From a bacterium (GTDB taxonomy: Bacteria; Patescibacteriota; Microgenomatia; UBA1400; UBA12108), in the NCBI GenBank assembly GCA_043827085.1, contig JBDRPO010000016.1:42752-106751 (forward strand): 64,000 bases of DNA, in the 5' to 3' direction. This document shows positions 7,946 through 54,669 of the stretch, piece after piece. How positions within the stretch are numbered: the first letter of the stretch is position 1; each line of letters begins with the position of its first letter. The position numbers were made by a program, and so were the translations under genes. The notes below the pieces were generated by a model. It was given only the letters and a program-made list of their open reading frames with translations, was not told where the DNA came from and ran no database searches.

Positions 7946-8290
7946 ATGAAAAAACTAGTATCTAAACAGTCACGCATCACTCGAGTCCGCGCCAGTCTCA
8001 AAAGTTCTGGTCGTCCCCGCCTTACCCTTTTCCGCTCTAACGAGCATCTTTGGGCTCAAATTATCGACGATGCATCCGGTAAAACTATAGTCTCCGTAAG
8101 CACCAAGACTATTACAAGTAAAAAAGGTGACACGAAAACTGTTCGCGCTGGCATAGTTGGCACAGAAATCGCGCGTCTTGCTCTCGCCAAAAAACTTAAA
8201 CAAATAGTATTCGATCGTGGCGCATATAAATATCATGGTCGTGTCAAAGCCGTAGCTGATGCGGCCCGTGCCGGCGGACTGGAGTTCTAA
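7946..8290 (+). CDS. rplR: 50S ribosomal protein L18
   Basis: L18-like sequence ([20 protein letters not shown]). Confidence 0.9.
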
Positions 8291-8291
8291 T

Positions 8292-8831
8292 ATGTACAAC
8301 AATAGATCACAAAACAAAGATCGCGCACCTCGCGCCCCACAGGAATTTGACGAAAAAGTCATCCGCATCTCTCGGGTAACCAAGAAAACCAAGGGTGGCA
8401 ACAACATTAGCTTTACTGCTCTAGTAGTCGTTGGTGACCACAAGGGTCGAGTTGGGGTCGCGCTCGGAAAAGCCAAAGACGTCATGAACGCCATTAAAAA
8501 AGGCGTCCGTCGTGGCAAAAAGACAGTAATCACAGTCCCCTTAGTCGAAAATCGTACTATCCCTCACGAACTCATGGTCAAGTTTGGTGCTGCCAAACTT
8601 ATCCTCAAGCCCGCCCCCGCCGGTACCGGCGTGATCGCGGGAGGCAGTGTTCGCGCCATTCTTGAGCTCGCCGGCATCAAAGACGTTGTCTCCAAGATCC
8701 TCGGCACCAACAACAAGATGAGCAATGTCACCGCAACCTTTGAGGCTCTCAAAATTATGAAAAAAACTGTCGCCATAAAATCTGCGCTCGGTCAAACCAA
8801 CACTAAAAAAACAGTTACCCAAAATCATTAA
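8292..8831 (+). CDS. rpsE: 30S ribosomal protein S5
   Basis: S5 dsRBD and C-terminal domain are present (RVTKKTKGGNNISFTALVVVGD). The start is at the ATG after the rplR stop. Confidence 0.93.
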   Translation: MYNNRSQNKDRAPRAPQEFDEKVIRISRVTKKTKGGNNISFTALVVVGDHKGRVGVALGKAKDVMNAIKKGVRRGKKTVITVPLVENRTIPHELMVKFGAAKLILKPAPAGTGVIAGGSVRAILELAGIKDVVSKILGTNNKMSNVTATFEALKIMKKTVAIKSALGQTNTKKTVTQNH

Positions 8832-8840
8832 ATAAAACCT

Positions 8841-9287
8841 ATGCAACTAAACTTACTCCCCAAACTATCCGCCCGCAAAAACAAGCGCCTCGGCCATGGC
8901 TATGGCTCGGGAAAAGGTGGACACACCAGTAGTCGCGGTCAAAAAGGACAAAAGTCCAGGAACCACGTCCGCTTATCATTTACCGGCTCCTCTTGGGTTT
9001 GGTTCAAGCGTTTACCCTTTATGCGAGGGAAAAGTCGTTTTAACTCATTTGGCAAGCGCGCCCTCATCAACCTCTCATCCCTCAATGTATTCCCCGCTGG
9101 TTCAGTCATTACAATGGAAAAGCTCATCGAAGCCAAAATTATCTCCAAAAATCAGGCCACCATCTCTAGGGTTAAAATTGTCGGTACGGGAGAACTCACC
9201 AAAAAACTCAAAGTCATGATTCCGGCGACGACTAGTGCCGTCAAAGCCATCATAGCCGCTAAAGGGGAGTACAGTGGACAAGATTAG
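8841..9287 (+). CDS. rplO: 50S ribosomal protein L15
   Basis: [24 protein letters not shown] is an L15 signature. It directly follows rpsE with no L30 gene between them. Confidence 0.92.
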
Positions 9288-10560
9288 AGAATTTTTCTCA
9301 ACCTTAAAATCCAACCGCGAACTGCGGACTAGACTCTTAGTAACCCTATTTATTTTTGCTATCTTCCGTTTTGTCACCCACATCCCCGTGCCGGGAGTGA
9401 ATCTCGAAGCCATCAAACAAGTCTTCGCTTCCAATCAACTACTGTCACTTCTTGACGTCTTTTCTGGTGGTACTCTCGCCAACTTTTCCATCCTTGCTCT
9501 AGGCTTAAATCCCTATATCAACGCCTCTATCATTATGCAGCTCATGACCATGATTAACCCCAAGCTAGAAGAGATGCAAAAAGAAGGGGAGACTGGCCAG
9601 AACGTGATTAATGGGTATACCCGGATGCTCGCTGTCCCTCTCTCGATCATGCAAAGCGCCGCCATGTTTATGCTTCTCAAAAATAGTTCGCTGGTCACCG
9701 CAAGTAACCCTCTCGCGATTGTCACGCTCCTTGCGACCATGGCCGCCGGCAGCATCTTCCTCATGTGGCTAGGAGAGAACTTAACCGAGTACGGCATTGG
9801 CAACGGCATCTCCCTTCTCATTTTTGCCGGTATCGTCGGCCGCCTTCCCGTTACTTTCCTCCATACCAGCGCTACGTTCTCGACAGTTAATTCCGCCAGT
9901 ATGATTACTCTTGGCCTTCTTGGCTTATTTGTTATTTATGCAATCGTCGCAATCGACGAAGCCAAACGCCAGATCCCCGTCTCCTACTCGCGCCGCATCC
10001 GTGGTGGAAAAGACGTGGGTGGTGGCACGACGTACCTCCCGATCAAGCTCAATAATGCCGGCGTGATCCCGATTATCTTTGCGATCGCCTTGGTTTTGGC
10101 CCCGAGTATGCTCGCCAACGTCCTCAAAGGAGTCGCCAATTCGACAGTTGCGGGAGCTGCCGCTAGTTTCGCAGCCTGGTTTACCCCAACCTCTATCGCC
10201 TACAACGTCTTCTATTTCATCATGGTCGTGAGCTTTACCTATTTCTATACGGCGGTCGTTTTCGACACCGACAAAATTAGCGATCAGCTCAAACAAAATG
10301 GTGGCTACGTCCCTGGAATCCGCCCCGGCAAAGAGACCTCCAAATACCTAAGCTACATCGTCAAACGTACTACCTTAGCAGGCGCTCTCTTCCTTGGCGC
10401 TATTGCGGTTATGCCAAGTATCATTCAAGGCATGACCGGCATTACCAGTCTCACGATCGGCGGTACCAGTATCTTGATCGTCGTCTCTGTCGTCCTCGAG
10501 ACTTACCGCAAGACCCAGTCCTATCAAGTCGCCCGTAGCTATGATTCGTTTATCAGATAA
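9274..10560 (+). CDS. secY: Preprotein translocase subunit SecY
   Basis: A 10-TM protein with SecY-like sequence (plug and hinge regions) in the conserved position after rplO. Confidence 0.95.
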
Positions 10561-45601: not shown

Positions 45602-46252
45602 TCATTGTACAGTATAAGTCAATAACTCCTCAAACAGGGGCTCGACATCTTCTTCGCTGATCTCATCTAAATCTACATTTGTTTGCCTTCTAACTTGCTC
45701 TTCCAATTTATACAAAAAGTCATACCACCCCATCTCTCGCCCATACCTCCTCTGTAAGTCCTCGATCCTCTTTTTTAGTGTAGTCACCCCAGTAGGCACC
45801 ACCCGCACATCACAATACGACAAAATCTTTCCCCCCCAACCTTGCTCCAGTAATTGCGCTGGGTTATCGCTCGCATACCCCGCATGTTCCCGTCCCATTA
45901 TCAGATTAGTGTCATCTTGCCCAAGCTCTGCGACGATCTTAGTCGTTGCTTCATGAGCATTAGTACCATATTTTTCTCTGTACTTTGCTTGTATTTTCTT
46001 CCAGTATTCTAAATTCTCAATTTGTATGATGTTTTTCCCCAAATCAAACTTCACAATATTTCCCATATCATGCAGGAGGAGTGACCGCATGACCAGATCT
46101 CGGTCGATTCCACCCTTCCATCCGTCAACAATTAACTTACCTACTCCCGCCACCCGCAGCATGTGTGTCGCCAACTGCGGCATAATATGATACTTGGCGT
46201 ACACATCTTGGATCGTCATACGTGTAGTATATAATGAATTCATGGCCACCAA
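45602..46252 (-). CDS. HD-domain phosphohydrolase
   Basis: H...LLHDMGN...D pattern of the HD superfamily. Confidence 0.65.
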   Translation of the reverse strand: MVAMNSLYTTRMTIQDVYAKYHIMPQLATHMLRVAGVGKLIVDGWKGGIDRDLVMRSLLLHDMGNIVKFDLGKNIIQIENLEYWKKIQAKYREKYGTNAHEATTKIVAELGQDDTNLIMGREHAGYASDNPAQLLEQGWGGKILSYCDVRVVPTGVTTLKKRIEDLQRRYGREMGWYDFLYKLEEQVRRQTNVDLDEISEEDVEPLFEELLTYTVQ

Positions 46253-46598
46253 ACACGTCCACTACAAGTCACCCTTTGCCGAGTACTTCAACTATCTAAG
46301 TCGGATTGATCGCGGCAAACGCTACTCAAATGAATACGGATCGATCCTCATCCTCTCGCTGGTCGAAGAAGTAGGGGAGGTGGCGCGGGCTTACCTCGCC
46401 GAGCACGGCCGGAAGCCTCTAAACCTCGCCGCCCAACACGACGAATCCTACGAGCAAGAGCTAGGGGATCTCATGGTCACAATCCTCCGCATCGCGCGGA
46501 TCAAGGATATCAACCTCAACGAGCGGATCCTGTATACTCTAAAGAAGATCGAAGCCAGAAAATTAAAACCCAAAGAATATAAGGAGCTAAAGTCATGA
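46245..46598 (+). CDS. MazG-like nucleotide pyrophosphohydrolase (small, all-alpha)
   Basis: EEVGEVARA...EELGDLM is the MazG EExxE...EELGD motif. The start is at the internal ATG, giving a short divergent overlap with the HD gene. Confidence 0.6.
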   Translation, partial: ATKHVHYKSPFAEYFNYLSRIDRGKRYSNEYGSILILSLVEEVGEVARAYLAEHGRKPLNLAAQHDESYEQELGDLMVTILRIARIKDINLNERILYTLKKIEARKLKPKEYKELKS

Positions 46599-47767
46599 AA
46601 CATTATCTAGTTGCCCTCTTCACCATTTTTATCTCTCTCTTTACCTTCGCGCCAGTAGCCTTTGCCAAAGTTATGTGGCAAGAAAAAGGCAAACTCACCA
46701 TTCCGGTGGGTGAAACCATCGACGATGATCTCTTTATCGCTAGCGAAAACGTCGCGATCGACGGTACGGTCAATGGCAGTGTCTTTGTCGGGGCTGGGAA
46801 TGTGGCAGTGAGCGGCAACATCAAAGGTGATCTCTTGATCGGTACCGGTCAAGCTGATCTGTCCGGCGTAGTGAGTGGCGATCTTTATATCGGCGCTGGC
46901 AACATCACACTCTCCAAACTCACGGTGGGCGGTAATGTCGTGACCGCAGCTGGTAACCTAACAATCGATGAAACAAGTAAGATCGGAGGCTCGCTCATTA
47001 CGGGTGTGGGTAACCTGAAAAACTCCGCTCCAGTCGGTAGAAGCATCATGGTTGGTGCCGGGATGGCCTATCTCGATAACAAGGTGGGTCGCGAACTCCG
47101 CTTTGGTGGGCGTGATCTTGAGCTTGGTCCTCACGCAAGTATTGCCGGCAATGTGACGTATGCCCTTGGCGAAGAACGAGGGACTTTCAAGCAAGACCCC
47201 TCCGCTACAATCGGCGGCACGGTGAGTAAGTACACTCCTCCCGTCCAAGCTCAGCGTGACATGACCAAAGTCAAATCTGACTTAGCCAAATTCGGTCGGG
47301 CTTTCCATGGCACCTGGCTCGTCATCTCTTTCCTCGGTTCGCTTCTCGTCGGCTTTTTCCTCCTCAAGCTTTTCCCCAAAACCTCGCTTGGTTTGACTAG
47401 CCAGATTACCAAGTCTCCCATGCCAAGCCTAGGTATCGGCTTTCTTATCATGATCTTGGCCTTCCCCGTCTTCCTGGTGCTAGCTCTCACCGTGATAGGC
47501 CTCCCCTTGGCCGGGCTACTCTTCCTTTTATTCTGCCTCGAAGTTCACCTCGCCAAGCTTGTCTCGGCCTACGCGCTCGGTCGCTTTGTGGCTGGGCAGT
47601 TTAGCTGGAACAAGCTAGGAGTGTACGCCGTCTTCGGAATTGGTCTCGCGCTCTTCTATTTCCTCCGCGCCATACCCATGATCGGCTGGATAAGTTCCAA
47701 TCTCTTCACCTGGGCCGGTCTCGGCGCCATGTGGCACTACGCCAGCGCCCACCAAAAAAACCTCTAA
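46595..47767 (+). CDS. Secreted beta-helix repeat (bactofilin/DUF583-like) protein with C-terminal 4-TM anchor
   Basis: Signal peptide, then repeated G(N/T)VxVxGxIxGDLxIG units, then hydrophobic C-terminal helices. Confidence 0.45.
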   Translation: MKHYLVALFTIFISLFTFAPVAFAKVMWQEKGKLTIPVGETIDDDLFIASENVAIDGTVNGSVFVGAGNVAVSGNIKGDLLIGTGQADLSGVVSGDLYIGAGNITLSKLTVGGNVVTAAGNLTIDETSKIGGSLITGVGNLKNSAPVGRSIMVGAGMAYLDNKVGRELRFGGRDLELGPHASIAGNVTYALGEERGTFKQDPSATIGGTVSKYTPPVQAQRDMTKVKSDLAKFGRAFHGTWLVISFLGSLLVGFFLLKLFPKTSLGLTSQITKSPMPSLGIGFLIMILAFPVFLVLALTVIGLPLAGLLFLLFCLEVHLAKLVSAYALGRFVAGQFSWNKLGVYAVFGIGLALFYFLRAIPMIGWISSNLFTWAGLGAMWHYASAHQKNL

Positions 47768-47823: not shown

Positions 47824-47896
47824 TGCCGGGTCGCTAATGGTAAGCAGCGTGACTCTGAATCACGTAATCTAGGTCCGAATCCTAGCCCGGCAACCA
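47824..47896 (+). tRNA. tRNA-Gln (anticodon CUG) candidate with atypical features
   Basis: Cloverleaf by eye: acceptor UGCCGGG/CCCGGCA with U1-A72 as in bacterial tRNA-Gln, U8, D-loop with GG, and anticodon stem CGUGA/UCACG with loop CUCUGAA (U33, CUG, A37). The T-arm is CUAGG-UCCGAAU-CCUAG and CCA is encoded. Irregular points are C55 instead of U55 and a 3-bp D-stem with a 2-nt connector. Confidence 0.45.
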
Positions 47897-48008
47897 ACTA
47901 GTGCAACCCGAGAGGCCGTGACGCCTCAAACAGACTAATGAGTCCTACTAATTTGTCGAAATCTCCTCAAACTCCTGCAACCGCGAAAATCATCGGAAAC
48001 TTGAGGAA

Positions 48009-48341
48009 ATGCGATATACTCATATCATGTTTAACCAGAGTGTGTACTTTGAGGAAGCTAACGCCAAGAGGATATTTTGCTGCCTTGCCGAACCGGATAG
48101 CACCATCAAAAAGATTGTTATTATGTCGCACGGCTTTCGCGGATCCTCTATTGGTCCCGCCAGGCAGTTTGTTGATTTCGAGCAGGTACTCACCAAAAAT
48201 GGGTACTCGGTCCTCCGCTTTGACCAACCAAACTGTGGCAATTCTGAGGGTGACTTTCTCCAGTCTTCATTCAATGAATGGGTAGCCACCATTTCCCACC
48301 GAAGTGGCTGGAGATCCCGCAGGATGAGCAGGCATTTATGA
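48009..48341 (+). pseudogene. Truncated alpha/beta-hydrolase gene fragment (N-terminal ~95 aa only)
   Basis: IVIMSHGFRGSSIGPARQFVDFEQVLTKNGYSVLRFDQPNCGNSEGDF is the N-terminus of an alpha/beta hydrolase (e.g. dienelactone hydrolase or peptidase-like). The frame breaks before the nucleophile elbow, and the downstream 48278-48475 ORF is in another frame. Confidence 0.5.
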
Positions 48342-48488
48342 AATTTATGAAAGAGGTTGATACTCTTATTGCCGGTCCTATCCCGCTGGAGGGTGAAGCC
48401 TGCCAGTTCTGTAAATACCGGCATGTGAACGAACAGTATCAAGAGTCATCCGGCGAGAATAACTTGCCGTTTTAGAGGAACTTGACGG

Positions 48489-49046
48489 TCAAAGCTGGTT
48501 TGCCAGGTATTTTACCAAAACTTCAATCTTTCCATTATCATCAATCGAGAGCTTCATCACACTGCCAACTCGCTTTCTTGTTGAGTATGCTGCCCCTGGG
48601 TTAAGTATTAGCAAATTACCATACTTTTTAATAACGACTTCGTGAAAGTGTCCAAATACGCATACGTTTACTTTATTATGCAACTGATCTTTTAGCCTAG
48701 TTAGCTGCATATGTAAAGCTATGCTTTTTAGCTTGAATGCCTTGCTGATTAAATACTCAGCATATTGAATAGCTTTACGGCTTGTTTTATGCACCAGCAT
48801 AATCTTCAAGGGCCCAATCGTGAGATGCTCTACATCTCGTAAATTGTACTTCTCCCTATCGGACTGTTTGTTCCCCATAACCGCAACAACAGGAGCAATA
48901 TTCTCTAACTTTTTAAACTCTGACTTATCGCCGATGTCCCCAGCATGCAAAATCATCGAAACGTCGGAAAAGAAATTAATTATGTCGGGAGCTAACTTAT
49001 TACACTTGGTAAAATGAGTATCTGCAATTACCCCAATTATTTTCAT
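48489..49046 (-). CDS. YfcE/MJ0936-like metallophosphoesterase
   Basis: Calcineurin-fold motifs are present (IADTH, HAGDIGD, GN, GHFH). It is the last gene of the minus-strand operon. Confidence 0.8.
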   Translation of the reverse strand: MKIIGVIADTHFTKCNKLAPDIINFFSDVSMILHAGDIGDKSEFKKLENIAPVVAVMGNKQSDREKYNLRDVEHLTIGPLKIMLVHKTSRKAIQYAEYLISKAFKLKSIALHMQLTRLKDQLHNKVNVCVFGHFHEVVIKKYGNLLILNPGAAYSTRKRVGSVMKLSIDDNGKIEVLVKYLANQL

Positions 49047-50842
49047 TTAAGGTTGCTCGCGTTGCTCTCTAATTTATTCGCAATCTCAATCAACAAGTCG
49101 AAATCCTCAACTTTTCGAAATCTTGAGTCAACAACATTAAGACCGTTATAAGCTCCAATCAAAGCTCCAGTTATCCCTGCAATACCGTCAGTATTGCCAC
49201 CCCGAGCTTCAATTAGCTGTTTATCCCAAGATAAACCGGTCAATCTTTTCTTTTCTTCGACGGTATCCTGACGATAAGAATTGGCCGATAGTAGTATTGG
49301 TTTTGCGAATATACTCGGGTATGATAAAAAGTAAAATAATGCCAATGGCACTGTCTGCCAAACAGGGGAACCAGTACCATAAGTTACGGTAGCTCTCTTT
49401 ACATCGGTATCTCCTCTAATCGCCTGCTGAATATTTTTAACTAATATATTGACTCTTTTATTATCACTTCCATATTTAGTAATAATAAACTCTAAACTTT
49501 TTTGAGCCGAGGACTGTGGATTTTCGTTATTTTGTAAATAATGTATAAGTATGGCTATAAATACGTTCGCAGCTTTAGAAACTGAGGAATTATGTGTTAA
49601 GGACGCTTCCATCTCTGAATATTGCGCAATATCATTTATATCGTTGAAAAATAGTCCTATTGGAATAACTCGATATATCGATGAACAGGATTCTGTATTT
49701 GTAGATCCAGACTTATCAATTGCTACCCCCATACGTAATTTGTTGGCTGCAGATAGCGAAGTTGGTCCAGGCCATCTAGCATATTCTTTATCTTGACAAT
49801 CTTTGGCCCACTTTATAAGTGTATCCACTCTTGAGTCAACATTATACCCACCATCTTTAATAAGGTCTTTGGTTACATCAGTGAGCATCCTAGTGTTGTC
49901 TGTATAATACCCCGCGTTCAAGTGGCTAAAATATGGATGCTTAGCATTCGTTTGAAAGCCTTCGATACGACCCCTATTCATTGCAATAAATTCTTTACCC
50001 TCAATACCGGCAGCTGGGAATCCAAGTGAGTCTCCCACAGCAAATCCTACTAATGCCCCTCCAATTTTGTTTAATGGATCGTTATTGTGATACGACCTCT
50101 CCATTCTCTGCTCTAAGTGGAATAATAATGAAGCATCGCTGGTATATGCCCTCCCTACAAATAATTTTGACAACCACGGATACACACAAAACAATTTAAT
50201 TTCAGATTTAACATCGGCCTTTACCTGTAAATAGCAATCCATTAGAAATAAGGCAAAGGTAGCCTGGAGGCCTGTATCCACAAAGCAAATATTATCTTCC
50301 ATTCCAACTATTGCCCGTAATTCTCTAGTCATGGAAGTATGTAAGGCTCTAAGGTCACTATTAGACTCTAATATCATGCCAAGCTCTGTGGAGTAAGCCT
50401 GTATAAAGTCTTTCCAATTCTTAGCTTGTAGAGCTGCACTATTTACAACACTAAATAGCTTCAAATAATTCTCTTGAGATCCCAAATTTTTTCTAGACAA
50501 TGACATTTTTAGTACTCTCGTACTATCATTTCCGGGGTAGAAAACCTTTGCATCATTCAACAAAAACACATGCTTCTTCCCATCATTTAACAAGTCGTTT
50601 TTGAACTTTGTTATATGTTGATTTAGATTTTTTGCTTTTAGGGCAGATTGTCTTGGAATCTTTAGATTTAGTAACGTCTCTAATTTCTTTACGAATTTAG
50701 TCGGGTACTTATATGTCCATACGCTAAGAGCATCCTCGACTTTGGTAACATCAGTATCTACTTTGGCAATGCAAGCCCTAATCAGAGCCAGCATGTCTTG
50801 TGAATAAGTCAATAGTGTTTCAGTGTTTGGAGTTTTGTCCAT
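49043..50842 (-). CDS. Two-domain protein: unknown alpha-helical N-terminal domain (~270 aa) + ADP-ribosylglycohydrolase (ARH/DraG-like) domain with atypical metal-site residues
   Basis: ARH motifs are present: GALVGFAVGDSLGFP, GYYTDNTRM (canonical YTDDT) and GGNTDGIAGITGALIGAYNGL (canonical GGDTDT). Confidence 0.6.
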   Translation of the reverse strand: MDKTPNTETLLTYSQDMLALIRACIAKVDTDVTKVEDALSVWTYKYPTKFVKKLETLLNLKIPRQSALKAKNLNQHITKFKNDLLNDGKKHVFLLNDAKVFYPGNDSTRVLKMSLSRKNLGSQENYLKLFSVVNSAALQAKNWKDFIQAYSTELGMILESNSDLRALHTSMTRELRAIVGMEDNICFVDTGLQATFALFLMDCYLQVKADVKSEIKLFCVYPWLSKLFVGRAYTSDASLLFHLEQRMERSYHNNDPLNKIGGALVGFAVGDSLGFPAAGIEGKEFIAMNRGRIEGFQTNAKHPYFSHLNAGYYTDNTRMLTDVTKDLIKDGGYNVDSRVDTLIKWAKDCQDKEYARWPGPTSLSAANKLRMGVAIDKSGSTNTESCSSIYRVIPIGLFFNDINDIAQYSEMEASLTHNSSVSKAANVFIAILIHYLQNNENPQSSAQKSLEFIITKYGSDNKRVNILVKNIQQAIRGDTDVKRATVTYGTGSPVWQTVPLALFYFLSYPSIFAKPILLSANSYRQDTVEEKKRLTGLSWDKQLIEARGGNTDGIAGITGALIGAYNGLNVVDSRFRKVEDFDLLIEIANKLESNASNLK

Positions 50843-50845
50843 AAA

Positions 50846-52147
50846 TTACCTGTACGGAGGATCGGGATATTCTTCGACAGTTAAATGACCTGTGGTGGAA
50901 TCCCCGTCGCTAAAAATATAATATGAACTAGGAGGAAAGTAGCTATCGGGGTTTACCCCCAACTCTTCCATTACTTCTTTAAATATTCTCTTTACTATTC
51001 GTTGCAATACGTTTACCTGTGTAGGGTATAAACTTGCAAGAGCAATAATAATCTCTTCAAGCGAATGATATCCAATCCTATGGTCATAAAATGTACTGTA
51101 CTCTATCGGGATTGTATTTTGTGGGACACGGCCCCCCGCAATCTTAGATTCTTTTGGGTTATCTGCTGGTAGACCAATCTTCTTACGATACTCGGGATTA
51201 ACAGAAGCTGCCTGCAAATCTCGATATATAAATCTCGTAATTTGCCAGTCACTATCAAGTTCTATTAATGTATTTTGCGTGTGTGCTTCGAGTAAGATGC
51301 CGTATTTGAATGCAATAAACAACACGTTACTTATCATTGGTCTAGCGACTTTTTCTTCAAAAAATTTCTCCGGGGATAACCCAGAAAAATTAACCAACTG
51401 CTTAATAATTAGTGTATGTCCTGGGTTTCTAAAGTCTGGAGAATATAAACTAAACACAGGCATGAGATATTTACCCGATTGGTTGGTTGGGCTAGGATTT
51501 ACTAAGCGAAAAATGTTGCCGAAACTACTATCTAAGCAAGATGTTCCTAACGACATGGGTTCAGGCAAGTACCCGAATGTAGCCGGTAGATTATCAGTCT
51601 TCGAGATTTTTATAAATTCACCACTCATATAATGGCTTTGAATTGCAGACACTTCTGTCAATGCCCTGGGCAACCTGCCCAATTTTTTCCCTGATAAGTC
51701 CACCTTTATCATGTATGGCTTACCATCCAGAGACGTAATTAATGTTCTAGTAGATGATGTAGGACATGCTTTCACGTAGCCAGAGATTCTTTCTTTCGCA
51801 AATTCTCCAATTCCTCTCTCCGTGTACACGTCTACCATATCCGGATGTATGAAGAAGTGTACCTGCTTATTATCAAGTATTATGTTATTAAGTTCTGGTA
51901 CATCCTGAGTTTGATATAAATTCACAGCCTTTTTTGGAAGCGAAACATAGGGCAAATCAAACTCATCGTCTCCATCGAGAGGACGAAACTGTCTCGATAC
52001 TTCCGACCTATGTCTGTATGAATGGTAAGCTCCCTTATTAACATATCTTTCTGTATAAATCAAAAGCGACAATGGATCGTCAAAAGAAGTAATCCACTCT
52101 TCATTATGGCTCGGAGTATTGGGAGTTAGTATTGATTTGTTGCTCAT
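50846..52147 (-). CDS. Hypothetical protein, possibly kinase-like or IucA/IucC-like adenylating fold
   Basis: Motifs CPTSSTRTL, KPYMIKVDLSGKKLGRLPRALTEVS and EAHTQNTLIELDSDWQITRFIYRDLQ. The assignment is not secure. Confidence 0.4.
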   Translation of the reverse strand: MSNKSILTPNTPSHNEEWITSFDDPLSLLIYTERYVNKGAYHSYRHRSEVSRQFRPLDGDDEFDLPYVSLPKKAVNLYQTQDVPELNNIILDNKQVHFFIHPDMVDVYTERGIGEFAKERISGYVKACPTSSTRTLITSLDGKPYMIKVDLSGKKLGRLPRALTEVSAIQSHYMSGEFIKISKTDNLPATFGYLPEPMSLGTSCLDSSFGNIFRLVNPSPTNQSGKYLMPVFSLYSPDFRNPGHTLIIKQLVNFSGLSPEKFFEEKVARPMISNVLFIAFKYGILLEAHTQNTLIELDSDWQITRFIYRDLQAASVNPEYRKKIGLPADNPKESKIAGGRVPQNTIPIEYSTFYDHRIGYHSLEEIIIALASLYPTQVNVLQRIVKRIFKEVMEELGVNPDSYFPPSSYYIFSDGDSTTGHLTVEEYPDPPYR

Positions 52148-52150
52148 AAA

Positions 52151-53683
52151 TTAGTCATGGTTTTCTAGATTCTCCACTAACCAGTCGAACTTACGCCTAG
52201 TTGTGTCTGTGGCTCTGACAAGCGGTAGTTCTTTAAGCTTACCACTTAACTCACCCATTTCGTCTAGAATCGCAGTCCGATCACCCGGCTCAGAATTAGG
52301 ATTTATTCCTTTGTACTCAAGCTCTGCTTGAGAAAGAGTTTTATGTTCGCCCGTTTGACAGAAATCAGCCGAAAGATTGTAATACCTCCCTGATTGTCTA
52401 TTGTGTAAGAACAGATAGAACTTTTTTCGCCTGGTTGTACCTACATACTCCACAGGTTTTCCTAGTCGACTTTCTTGGATAGACTTAATCACCCCCAAAT
52501 CTCGAGAATCGTATGTTCGATTCACCTTAATCATTTCTTCAGGCCTACTCATAACTTGATCTTGACCGTTAGCACTAGTAGGGAGCATCTCCTTTTTCCC
52601 TTTAATCTTTATAAAGTATTTGGGTTTACGGGGATGTCTCACGATCACAAAAGCTTCTTCAAGGGTAGATCCAGCATCACGATATCCGTAGTTGTCAAAG
52701 TAATATGTCCAAAATGATACACTCTCCATACCAGGTACAAGCTCAACATCGCCAAACAATCCAGATTTACAATAAGAGGCGACAATTTCAAGAAAAGTAG
52801 ATGGATCTTGAGGGGTTAACTCAAACTTCTTTTCTAATTCTTCTCCCTCCAGTTCATCAGTCATTTCCCACCCCAATAGTGAATGGAGCGGTTCACTTTG
52901 ATCTTCAGAATGGTTGAGTTCCGCAGAAGTTTGTTTTGGCAGTAGCTTAACTGTTTCCCGGTATTGGGCTTCGACTTTGCCTTGCAATGTTCCGATTGGG
53001 ATTGCTCCTTCTTTCGTTAATTTTTCGATAATAGGTACCGTAAGTTGGTCTGTTTCGGGAGAGTACTTTACCTCACCTTTCATCATCCCCTCTGTTCCCA
53101 TAACCAATGCGCTATTAGGTTTGCCAGCAATAAAAGCGTAATAGTGTATGTTCTTGTCTAGCGTCAATCGTAACTGCAGATCACTTTCAATTGGATGAAA
53201 ATGGGATCGTTCATATACAATGCCCAATAATGGCTCCAGCGCTTCAAAATCAAACTCGGTAAACAACATTTTCAGCAACGCTGGATCAAACTCGGACTCT
53301 GTAGACGTTTGCAGATAATTTAGAAACCCCAGAGGGTTATTTAATATTCGCAACACTGTCTCATAAGTTGTGGTTAGTCGGTCCTTAGTCACTCTATCTT
53401 GTTGGTGACCTTTAATTTCCATATGTACAACGTCTTGATCTGCAATAGTGATTGCGCCTGGATTCAAATTCGACAAATATCTCCTTGTCCTCACCAAACC
53501 ACCTTGATTCAAGCTGACACCGTTACCAAAATAAATGTTTTCGGTAACTGGGAAGCATCCGCCATCCAGTAACAATGTTTGTTGCGTTAACTCTGGTAAA
53601 ACATCACCAATTCTTTCTCCGACCTCGTTTGGAATCAAAAATCTGATCTCTCTTCTACTGTTAAAAATGGTGTCTTCTTTCAC
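52151..53683 (-). CDS. Hypothetical protein with weak CYTH/VTC (triphosphate-tunnel)-like N-terminal domain and unknown C-terminal region
   Basis: Beta-strand motifs EIRFLIP, GLVRTRRY, MEIKG and LRLTLDKN are reminiscent of the TTM/VTC fold. The C-terminus has ...YNLSADF...SQAELEYKG. Low confidence. It is the first gene of the operon. Confidence 0.35.
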   Translation of the reverse strand: MKEDTIFNSRREIRFLIPNEVGERIGDVLPELTQQTLLLDGGCFPVTENIYFGNGVSLNQGGLVRTRRYLSNLNPGAITIADQDVVHMEIKGHQQDRVTKDRLTTTYETVLRILNNPLGFLNYLQTSTESEFDPALLKMLFTEFDFEALEPLLGIVYERSHFHPIESDLQLRLTLDKNIHYYAFIAGKPNSALVMGTEGMMKGEVKYSPETDQLTVPIIEKLTKEGAIPIGTLQGKVEAQYRETVKLLPKQTSAELNHSEDQSEPLHSLLGWEMTDELEGEELEKKFELTPQDPSTFLEIVASYCKSGLFGDVELVPGMESVSFWTYYFDNYGYRDAGSTLEEAFVIVRHPRKPKYFIKIKGKKEMLPTSANGQDQVMSRPEEMIKVNRTYDSRDLGVIKSIQESRLGKPVEYVGTTRRKKFYLFLHNRQSGRYYNLSADFCQTGEHKTLSQAELEYKGINPNSEPGDRTAILDEMGELSGKLKELPLVRATDTTRRKFDWLVENLENHD

Positions 53684-53961
53684 AATGATATATTGTAACC
53701 TATAGTCATCGCAAATACAACATCCACTATATCAAAGTATATCACCGCAAGTAAGCTATGTACCGTCCCATTTGTCTCAAATAGCCTGGAGAGTGAGACA
53801 CTACTAGTTGAGCTATAAGGATTGAAAGGTTCCAGACCTAGCTCCACAACATGCAAAATAAGACGGAATTATCCATCTTAATAAGTTCCTCACTTAAAAC
53901 CCAGAGCGTAAAGTCGTGGGAGTGTTATAAGTTAATGAGATTTTAAACTGGTTCTCCAAAT

Positions 53962-54174
53962 CTACCTCATCGCTTTGATGTGCATCACGATTCCGGCTAT
54001 GACAAACACCGCTCCCCATCGCACCGGGTGCGCTCCGGCGAGAGGGTAGGTGAGAAGAAATCCCGCGCCTATCCCCAGAAGCAAATGTGCGGTCGCGTTC
54101 TCTCCCGGGTGCTTGGCAAAGTACTTCACAGCTTTCTTACTTATCATTCTTACCTCCTTTGTACCTCTATCCAA
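53962..54174 (-). CDS. Small two-TM membrane protein (hypothetical)
   Basis: Hydrophobic 60-70 aa ORF (LLLGIGAGFLLTYPLAG...AVFVIAGIVMHI). No homology was recognised. Confidence 0.3.
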   Translation of the reverse strand: MDRGTKEVRMISKKAVKYFAKHPGENATAHLLLGIGAGFLLTYPLAGAHPVRWGAVFVIAGIVMHIKAMR

Positions 54175-54216: not shown

Positions 54217-54669
54217 ATGGTTAAAGGTATCGACTACATTGGTGTTTCAGCCGGAGCCATGATAATCAACGATCAAGGACAGATCTTTCTCGCCCAGCGC
54301 GGGCAAAAAGCCAATAATGAACGAGGCTGCTGGGAGAATCCCGGTGGCAGTGTAGAGTTTGGGGAAAAACTGGCAGACGCCGTCAAGCGTGAAATCATGG
54401 AAGAATATGGAGCCGAGATCGAAATCATCAAACAATTCCCCGCTGAAGATCATTTGATTCCGGCCGAGCATCAGCATTGGGTTGCAACCACTTTCCTCGC
54501 GAAATTCAAGAAGGGGAGTGAGCCCAAAATAATGGAGCCAGACAAATGCTCGGCCATCGGCTGGTTTGATTTGAGCGCGCTACCCTCTCCACTCTCCATC
54601 ATTACCGAGCTAGATATTAAGCATCATGGCAAAGATGTATCAAACTTAGTTACCGATTTCCCAGTATAA
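54217..54669 (+). CDS. NUDIX hydrolase
   Basis: Nudix box GGSVEFGEKLADAVKREIMEEYG. Confidence 0.8.
   Translation: MVKGIDYIGVSAGAMIINDQGQIFLAQRGQKANNERGCWENPGGSVEFGEKLADAVKREIMEEYGAEIEIIKQFPAEDHLIPAEHQHWVATTFLAKFKKGSEPKIMEPDKCSAIGWFDLSALPSPLSIITELDIKHHGKDVSNLVTDFPV

Follow-up and report, generated by a model that had tools for sequence, protein, structure and literature searches.

A remodelled ADP-ribosylglycohydrolase-fold domain paired with a conserved N-terminal domain: a candidate phosphoribosyl-acting protein of bacteria and archaea

What does a protein of the ADP-ribosylglycohydrolase (ARH) superfamily do once the residues that hold its metal ions and carry out its catalysis have been replaced? 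The question is raised by a 599-aa open reading frame (ORF) in a 64,000-nucleotide stretch of a patescibacterial genome (Microgenomatia; UBA1400; UBA12108; GenBank assembly GCA_043827085.1, contig JBDRPO010000016.1, positions 42,752 to 106,751 of the forward strand), referred to below as the window. A public collection contains the identical protein (P0001), labelled 'MAG: ADP-ribosylglycohydrolase family protein [bacterium]'. The original prediction for this gene noted that two aspartates of the canonical Mg-binding motifs read as asparagines, and it offered three readings: that the metal is coordinated differently, that the domain is an inactive reader of ADP-ribose, or that the substrate chemistry has shifted. 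As described below, the protein belongs to an ARH-fold clade without the metal ligands or the catalytic glutamate, and this clade is paired with an undescribed family of N-terminal domains that has no Pfam entry. The model that we consider best, and to which we give somewhat less than an even chance, is that the two modules form a metal-independent enzyme whose substrate is a small molecule bearing a phosphoribosyl group.

The C-terminal half of the protein is a member of the ARH superfamily by both fold and Pfam. PF03747 (ADP_ribosyl_GH) matches aa 262-571 with E=1.2e-38 and 133.9 bits, against a cut-off of 26.2. The full-length AlphaFold2 (AF2) model of the protein has a mean pLDDT of 84.5, and Foldseek places its ARH-like domain nearest to MJ1187 (PDB 1t5j), the closest solved structure, with a TM-score of 0.91 normalised to the target, and then to ARH3, DraG and Tri1, with a probability of 1.00. 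The domain shares with ARH3, ARH1, DraG and Tri1 the all-alpha fold, the first-motif Asp (D271), T314, D552, R391 (which belongs to the 'MRV' segment) and the 'TH' motif T416-H417, the counterpart of H182 in ARH3.

The metal site is a different matter. The strings GYYTDNTRM and GGNTDGIAG, on which the original prediction was built, are both found in the translation, and HMMER pairwise alignment with human ARH3 and MJ1187 sets YYTDNT under YYTDDT and GGNTDG under GGDTDT or GGDTDS with no shift. The objection that the aspartates might be present in an offset register fails, since a proper alignment does not recover them, and Asn does replace the second Asp of the first pair (N316, D78 in ARH3) and the first Asp of the second motif (N550, D314 in ARH3). 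The prediction had overlooked two other replacements, E41 to Ala and T317 to Gly, as well as the conservation of these states across the family and the nature of the N-terminal domain. The catalytic glutamate is absent, as A278 aligns with ARH3 E41, a position that is marked by 'gsfyE' in 5zqy and by 'gsfyA' in the E41A crystal construct 7akr, and G553 stands in for the MgB ligand Thr317. In the structure of ARH3 with ADP-ribose and Mg, MgA is held by T76, D77, D78 and D316, and MgB by D314, D316 and T317 (PMC8141533). The window protein keeps three of these ligands (T314, D315 and D552), while the other three of the six and the catalytic Glu are replaced. That the metal coordination is altered had been offered as a possibility; the loss of the canonical binuclear centre is now strongly supported.

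Mutants of ARH3 indicate what such changes would mean. The D77A, D78A, D314A and D316A mutations impair hydrolysis and D314E loses MgB (PMC8141533), and the activity of D78N, D77N and E41A is severely reduced (PMC8319183). Binding of an ADP-ribosylated peptide is kept in E41A, D77/78A, D314A and T317A (PMC5727137). By analogy with these mutants, the domain would not be a canonical hydrolase, yet it could bind a ribosyl ligand. As two defining mechanistic features fail, the binuclear site and the catalytic Glu, filing the protein as an (ADP-ribosyl)hydrolase is unwarranted, and the automated label quoted above is probably functionally misleading for this clade.

Whether these replacements represent decay or remodelling can be judged from the relatives of the protein, which are rare: only seven full-length ones occur among 5.8 billion clustered proteins. 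Eighty-four ARH ORFs from the fetched loci were aligned to a family hidden Markov model, 14 of them being family members (fused to the N-terminal domain or split from it), and a profile search with the N-terminal domain widened the fused set to about 25 representatives. A278, N316, N550, D552 and G553 are common to all 14 family members; the more distant ARHs have Glu at position 278 and, in 42 of 44 cases, Asp at position 316. The Asn states are thus a character of the clade and not the product of chance. Among the fused representatives, the E41 position is Ala in 25 of 25 (Ala or Ser in the split partners) and the D78 position is Asn in 24 of 25, the exception being P0042. Ala is also found at the E41 position in 13 of 13 aligned family loci, and P0042 is the one representative without N316 among all the ARHs examined that are associated with the N-terminal domain. 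GGN-x-DG is nearly invariant in the same set, and the D77 equivalent is variable (D/E/H/S/A). The most divergent partners (L093, L094 and L097; loci are cited by such numbers throughout) have G, S, A and V at the equivalents of T76, D77, D314 and T317, and divergent split partners have Ala in place of N550. These three still carry N316 and a set of family-specific residues (see the table) that is invariant in all 14 family loci and mostly missing from other ARHs. This replacement set holds down to about 30% identity, and also in the split partners of N-terminal domains that are only 16-20% identical to that of the window. Mean pairwise identity is 39% for the ARH domain and 29% for the N-terminal domain. 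Because the replacement residues are invariant and the ARH half is the better conserved one, the ARH-like domain is, on these alignments, a remodelled pocket under selection rather than a dying enzyme.

Compromised catalytic machinery on an ARH fold is also found in vertebrate ARH2/ADPRHL1, which is suspected to be inactive, and in jellyfish crystallin J1 (PMC7050489). Those proteins are eukaryotic, standalone and structural or cardiac, unlike this prokaryotic family, in which the strongly conserved replacement pocket and the links with phosphatases and with another enzyme-like domain argue for a retained ligand chemistry. An ARH-only sister clade in Acidobacteriota (L014-L030) and Archaeoglobaceae (L025-L037) has intermediate active-site states: the residue matching E41 is E, Q or A, the one matching D78 is D or N, and the third motif reads G-D-A-x-D-S. 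A sodium:solute symporter gene is the divergently oriented neighbour in nine of the acidobacterial loci; the other neighbours of the sister-clade gene are mostly housekeeping genes and weakly informative.

The replaced residues also bear on the ligand. ARH3 residues F143, S148 and Y149, which contact adenosine, align with T381, T383 and E384 in a loop region with an indel, so that by this alignment both aromatics would be lost. The invariant R356-W357 pair sits, in the alignment, in the loop that matches the border of the ARH3 substrate channel (G115-G119). From the loss of three acidic residues and the gain of two or three basic ones, we infer that the ligand may be more anionic and metal-free, such as a phosphoribosyl compound. 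Of the three readings offered by the original prediction, the shift in substrate chemistry is the best supported. A plain ADP-ribose reader is less likely, as the adenine-stacking residues do not appear to be conserved, a new and strictly conserved set of polar and basic residues is present, and phosphatases and a catalytic-looking domain are the obligate companions of the ARH-like domain.

The N-terminal part, of about 270 aa, was originally said to have no recognisable motif. This is correct in that it has no Pfam, NCBIfam or PDB-sequence match, but it is a well-defined conserved domain nonetheless. A search of 1.84 billion proteins gives its family 118 cluster representatives (E<1e-3), and the domain occurs fused to the ARH-like domain, as standalone proteins of about 250-280 aa and as the C-terminal half of proteins of 330-530 aa. 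The AF2 model built from a 21-sequence alignment has a pLDDT of 92.7 and a pTM of 0.90. In order, its elements are helices 7-85; beta1 followed by R/N-D97; beta2 followed by N/S-R117; helices 123-178; beta3 followed by D189-x-G-x-Q-G-T195; and a helix (195-207) into which this last loop runs. D97, R117 and the D189-T195 motif are conserved and lie at the C-termini of the strands. D97 is conserved at ≥90% in both a 116-sequence and the 21-sequence alignment, R117 is invariant in alignment A5 and conserved at ≥90% in alignment A4, D189 and G191 are invariant in alignment A5, and Q193 and T195 are invariant in alignment A6.

This order of elements resembles that of CriT, a ribofuranosyltransferase that depends on phosphoribosyl pyrophosphate (PRPP) and works with the HAD phosphatase CrpP (Haemophilus influenzae Bcs3, PDB 8a0c; T. 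composti enzyme, PDB 7shg). In CriT, a helical bundle is followed by a strand with S-R-D680, a strand with S-R708, an inserted helical bundle and a strand with E818...T825, and the E818...T825 loop holds the 5-phosphate of PRPP (PMC10299916). Both would have a phosphoribosyltransferase (PRT)-like alpha/beta core with helical bundles on its flanks and inserted into it, and both have a phosphatase by fusion or adjacency. The acidic residue after beta1, the Arg after beta2 and the acidic-Gly-...-Thr phosphate loop after beta3 match by order, and D97, R117 and D189-T195 may be likened to S678-R679-D680, R708 and E818-T825 of CriT. The N-terminal domain is at most a structural cousin of the PRTases and CriT. 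One distant standalone homologue (L089, 5562-6347, plus strand) has a Wzy_C gene on either side and a Wzx-type flippase gene upstream; no ARH accompanies it, and it is the only polysaccharide-cluster context among the loci seen.

The two modules form an obligate pair, either fused or adjacent, which distinguishes this family from the ARH/DraG proteins. They are fused in the window gene and in L001-L007, L009, L010 and L013, and they are adjacent, often overlapping, genes in L008 (Woesearchaeota), L011 (Woesebacteria), L012 (Curtissbacteria), L088, L090-L092, L093 and L094. The standalone N-terminal domains of L093 and L094 are the most divergent ones tested. In bacteria of the candidate phyla radiation (CPR), the split genes are in different frames and share 8-14 nt (L011 9953-11906, L012 5450-7406 and L091 5953-7906), which could be either a genuine split or a conserved frameshift. 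The family is found in Thaumarchaeota, Woesearchaeota, CPR, Verrucomicrobiota, Acidobacteriota and Gammaproteobacteria, and this patchy distribution suggests horizontal transfer and a family that is rare and scattered.

The neighbours of the pair were compared in about 19 independent family loci. Phosphatases are recurrent partners: a YfcE-type enzyme overlaps the ARH fusion in two loci (the window and P0002), a HAD phosphatase gene is adjacent in L004 and L005, and P0023 is a triple fusion of N-terminal domain, ARH and HAD. The phosphatase coupling resembles that of CriT and CrpP. RpiB is encoded directly downstream in a thaumarchaeon and a Woesebacterium, NUDIX enzymes occur in L012 and the window, PfkB in L094 and nucleoside triphosphate (NTP)-transferases in L008 and L011-L013. 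In L009, L093 and L094, the pair is flanked by tandem paralogues, two to four in number, of a nucleotide N-glycosidase like DNPH1/Rcl; their profile matches 4fyh with E=2.6e-11, and the S-x-R-G motif and catalytic Glu are conserved. A gene for a TIR-domain protein lies 7 nt upstream of the ARH fusion in L010. These DNPH1-like proteins and the TIR protein act on ribosyl N-glycosidic bonds of 5'-phosphorylated substrates. Like the related TIR-DrHyd-SLOG N-glycosidases, they have a different fold and are not homologous to the window protein; as recurrent neighbours, they bear on the class of substrate only. The common denominator of the partners is the C1/C5 chemistry of ribose-5-phosphate: N-glycoside cleavage, 5-dephosphorylation, isomerisation of ribose-5-phosphate and diphosphate hydrolysis. 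Mobile islands in L001-L003 and L092 also contain an NMT1-type ABC importer together with a regulator in which a helix-turn-helix (HTH) is joined to a domain resembling a solute-binding protein (SBP). No ADP-ribosyltransferase (ART) partner was found among the annotated or scanned neighbours, some small ORFs being outside the scan, and in this the family differs from toxin-immunity and DraT/DraG-type pairs.

Some of these neighbours have features of their own. The DNPH1-like paralogues are located at 8254-9429 and 11581-12926 in L009, at 3032-4203 in L093 and at 2025-3190 in L094, and they have a conserved C-terminal extension of about 55 aa with a D-x-RFNFFIS motif and weak NikA-like matches, which is absent from DNPH1 structures. 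The TIR protein of L010 (432-1874, plus strand, 480 aa) is a fusion of TIR with an NMT1-like domain of the solute-binding type, and the same SBP-like part is the one fused to HTH in L001-L003 and L092, beside the NMT1-type ABC transporter.

In the window, the ARH fusion is the third of four genes in a tightly coupled run that encodes, in order, a VTC/CYTH-like protein, an IucC/FhuF-like protein, the ARH fusion and YfcE. The YfcE start overlaps the ARH fusion stop as ATGA (49043-49046), and the junctions at 52145-52153 and 50840-50848 both read TAA-TTT-ATG. This overlap and the identical junctions indicate tight translational coupling, and the IucC/FhuF-like and VTC/CYTH-like genes are probably co-transcribed with the ARH fusion. 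In P0002, a 49%-identical homologue, the order is '429 aa - ARH fusion - Metallophos_2', and YfcE overlaps the stop there, too. IucC-like, VTC-like and NUDIX genes recur in that order in L085-L087, which are from small-genome bacteria and have no ARH gene, so that the IucC-like/VTC-like pair would be a separate conserved module. Elsewhere, this uncharacterised trio is often near genes for a WbsX glycosyltransferase, UppS and mannose-P isomerase. The 510-aa, 433-aa and YfcE partners of the window have no homologues in any GTDB locus of the family. A 441-450-aa HTH protein of L001-L003 was considered as a homologue of the 433-aa IucC-like protein and rejected, as the alignment was gappy with 17-24% identity.

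Table. Positions of the ARH fusion gene, its domains and motifs and the genes next to it, numbered from the first letter of the window
Feature	Coordinates	Strand	Remarks
Whole gene, 599-aa ORF	49043..50842	-	N-terminal PRT-like domain plus remodelled ARH-like domain
ARH-like domain, aa 256-599	49046..50077	-	MJ1187-like branch of PF03747
GDSLGFPAAG, aa 270-279	50006..50035	-	first ARH motif; A278 at ARH3 E41 position
YYTDNT, aa 312-317	49892..49909	-	N316 in place of MgA ligand ARH3 D78
GGNTDG, aa 548-553	49184..49201	-	N550 for D314; D552 keeps D316; G553 for T317
Family-specific pocket residue span	49271..49939	-	H302, R356-W357, S385-C386, Y390-R391, T416-H417, N521-S522-x-R524
FLLND, aa 93-97	50552..50566	-	beta1 end, near-invariant D97; proposed ribose/PRPP loop 1
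R117	50492..50494	-	Arg after beta2; proposed phosphate ligand
VDTGLQAT, aa 188-195	50258..50281	-	D189-x-G191-x-Q-G/A-T195 after beta3; proposed 5-phosphate (PRPP-motif-like) loop
YfcE-type metallophosphoesterase, 185 aa	48489..49046	-	Metallophos_2 E=3.6e-24 (Pfam), TIGR00040
IucC/FhuF-like, 433 aa	50846-52147	-	co-directional, upstream of ARH fusion
VTC/CYTH-like, 510 aa	52151-53683	-	co-directional, upstream of IucC/FhuF-like gene
NUDIX	54217-54669	+	plain 150-aa enzyme without HTH

How might the two modules work together? The model that we favour builds on what the analysis shows, namely the identities of the domains, the residue states and their conservation, the fused or split pairing and the neighbour statistics; which ligand is bound, which way the reaction runs and what each residue does in catalysis are proposals. 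The N-terminal domain would bind a compound with a 5-phosphoribosyl group, either PRPP or a glycoside of ribose-5-phosphate, via D97, R117 and D189-x-G-x-Q-G-T195, and the ARH-like pocket would hold the partner linked to C1 of the ribose without a metal, using N316, N550, D552, H302, H417, R356, R391, R524, W357, Y390 and S385/C386. Six of these (H302, R356, W357, S385, Y390 and R524) are invariant additions of the family relative to the ARH/DraG proteins. Jointly, the modules may form or cleave a ribosyl-1-X bond in a small molecule or, with lower probability, a glycan. The translationally coupled phosphatase, YfcE here and HAD elsewhere, could then strip the 5-phosphate, and ribose-5-phosphate might be exchanged with central metabolism. 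A more specific version, which we regard as doubtful, is that the pair is an unrecognised two-component enzyme in which a CriT-like phosphoribosyl transferase that uses PRPP works with a metal-independent module of the ARH fold, either a glycosidase or a binder of glycosyl groups. In that case, the pair would install, remodel or remove a ribosyl(-5-phosphate) group of a small molecule or nucleotide-derived signal, as a cassette spread by mobile elements among CPR, DPANN, thaumarchaeal archaea, Verrucomicrobiota and Proteobacteria.

Several observations weigh against the phosphoribosyl model. One main limit is that the evidence for the fold of the N-terminal domain is weak: Foldseek found no significant match for it in the PDB, it has no Pfam or NCBIfam match and the profile search of PDB sequences yields no PRTase, and the CriT equivalences come from motif order and spacing and not from superposition. 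The pocket residues were likewise grouped from a sequence alignment. Asn carbonyl oxygens are able to coordinate Mg2+, and a residual single-metal site may exist. No neighbour is universal, and the family is found in settings as different as housekeeping genes, such as those for ribosomal proteins in L007, and mobile islands that carry integrase, restriction-modification (RM) and type IV secretion system (T4SS) genes. The nearest neighbours in the window, the IucC-like and VTC-like genes, belong to another module and explain nothing.

Three other explanations have to be considered. That the protein is an ordinary (ADP-ribosyl)hydrolase that uses Asn as metal ligands and has kept a DraG/ARH3-like activity is very unlikely. 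The clear ARH fold and Pfam membership, the retention of T314, D315, D552, D271, R391 and the TH motif, the ability of Asn to ligate Mg2+ as a matter of general chemistry, and the acidobacterial sister clade, which mixes D and N at the D78 position yet keeps the Glu, can be cited for it. However, D78N or E41A is enough to cripple ARH3 (PMC8319183), D314A, D314E and T317A lose activity or MgB (PMC8141533, PMC5727137), and this family carries all four changes together. Moreover, the family does not conserve the D77 equivalent, four of the ligand positions are occupied by G, S, A and V in divergent members, and no ART partner appeared among the annotated or scanned neighbours in the loci compared. 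The glycan explanation, which we also find improbable, is that a CriT-like N-terminal domain ribofuranosylates a cell-envelope polymer, with the phosphatase in the role of CrpP and the ARH-like part as a metal-free module that binds ribose or the polymer and so holds the acceptor. The pairing of CriT with HAD (PMC10299916) is mirrored by the HAD fusion and HAD neighbours, RpiB plus a zinc alcohol dehydrogenase in L006 and an NTP-transferase plus a kinase in L011 resemble a precursor supply of the CDP-ribitol type, the L089 homologue is surrounded by Wzy and Wzx flippase genes, and the window gene abuts the module that elsewhere travels with WbsX, UppS and mannose-P isomerase. The members associated with an ARH, however, adjoin no glycosyltransferase, flippase or export genes, and the sole homologue in a polysaccharide cluster is the one without an ARH partner. 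ABC cassettes with solute-binding proteins imply import, the DNPH1-like, TIR, NUDIX and PfkB partners indicate nucleotides and not polymers, and the weakness of the N-terminal fold evidence counts here as well.

A sensor of a conflict system is somewhat easier to defend than the glycan explanation, though we still think it unlikely. The ARH-like part would then be a catalytically dead receptor for a signal derived from ADP-ribose or a nucleotide, for example, the product of a TIR or DrHyd protein, and would steer the N-terminal domain as effector. ARH3 mutated at E41, D77/78, D314 or T317 retains the binding of ADP-ribosylated ligands (PMC5727137), and many family loci are in mobile islands with integrases, recombinases, RM, RHS, SNF2, T4SS and PD-(D/E)XK genes. 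The TIR gene of L010, the DNPH1-like (DrHyd) paralogues, the patchy spread over bacteria and archaea, and the low-GC block beside a tRNA gene in the window (described below) point in the same direction. The phosphatase coupling and the lack of a cognate ART also fit the ARG-centric template, that is, predicted anti-ADP-ribosylation systems in which an ARH without a cognate ART has a calcineurin-like or HAD phosphatase in the same polypeptide or adjacent, a Nudix nearby and, frequently, a mobile or variable neighbourhood (Iyer, Burroughs, Anantharaman and Aravind 2022, PMC9503650). However, those systems were described with a metal-coordinating ARH site, Nudix/WYL-HTH regulators, chaperones, restriction endonuclease effectors and ARPP, none of which was found in this family, and the N-terminal PRT-like domain is not described in that account (PMC9503650). 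PADLOC has no match for the ARH protein or its upstream partners, and the phage and plasmid collections contain no family member, only distant canonical ARHs. By the alignment, the residues that stack on adenine in ARH3 seem to be lost, no toxic effector can be recognised, some loci have a housekeeping character (RpiB, histidyl-tRNA synthetase, ribosomal proteins), and the ABC importer with its cognate SBP-like regulator resembles a cassette for nutrient use.

The ARH fold has been understood almost wholly through the metal-dependent removal of ADP-ribose by DraG, ARH1, ARH3 and Tri1. This clade shows the fold recruited for a different chemistry or for the sensing of a specific ligand, and it gives the N-terminal domain family, with its ~118 cluster representatives, a clear and testable partner. 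If the two-component enzyme described above were real, it would be the first catalyst of the ARH fold to do without the binuclear metal centre and would put PRPP chemistry to a new use. The nucleotide economy of CPR and DPANN organisms is poorly understood, and the pair is a concrete candidate for new steps of ribose/nucleotide salvage or signalling in these small-genome organisms.

Finally, the surroundings of the gene in the window display some features of their own. A tRNA-Gln(CTG) gene (47824-47896, plus strand) borders a block of low GC (48000-54000; 0.39-0.40 vs 0.46-0.51 in the flanks), and this position at the edge of the block suggests an acquired island. No att-like direct repeat was found between the tRNA-Gln gene and the far end of the block, nor was an integrase found. 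A 110-aa ORF (48009-48341, plus strand) between the tRNA and YfcE genes has weak matches to Hydrolase_4 and Abhydrolase_1 that cover the N-terminal part of alpha/beta hydrolases and no more, and is probably the remnant of a pseudogene. Just upstream, at 45602-47767, are genes for an HD-domain protein, a MazG-like pyrophosphohydrolase and a bactofilin-like membrane protein. With NUDIX and YfcE included, four hydrolases of the nucleotide 'house-cleaning' type are encoded within about 9 kb.

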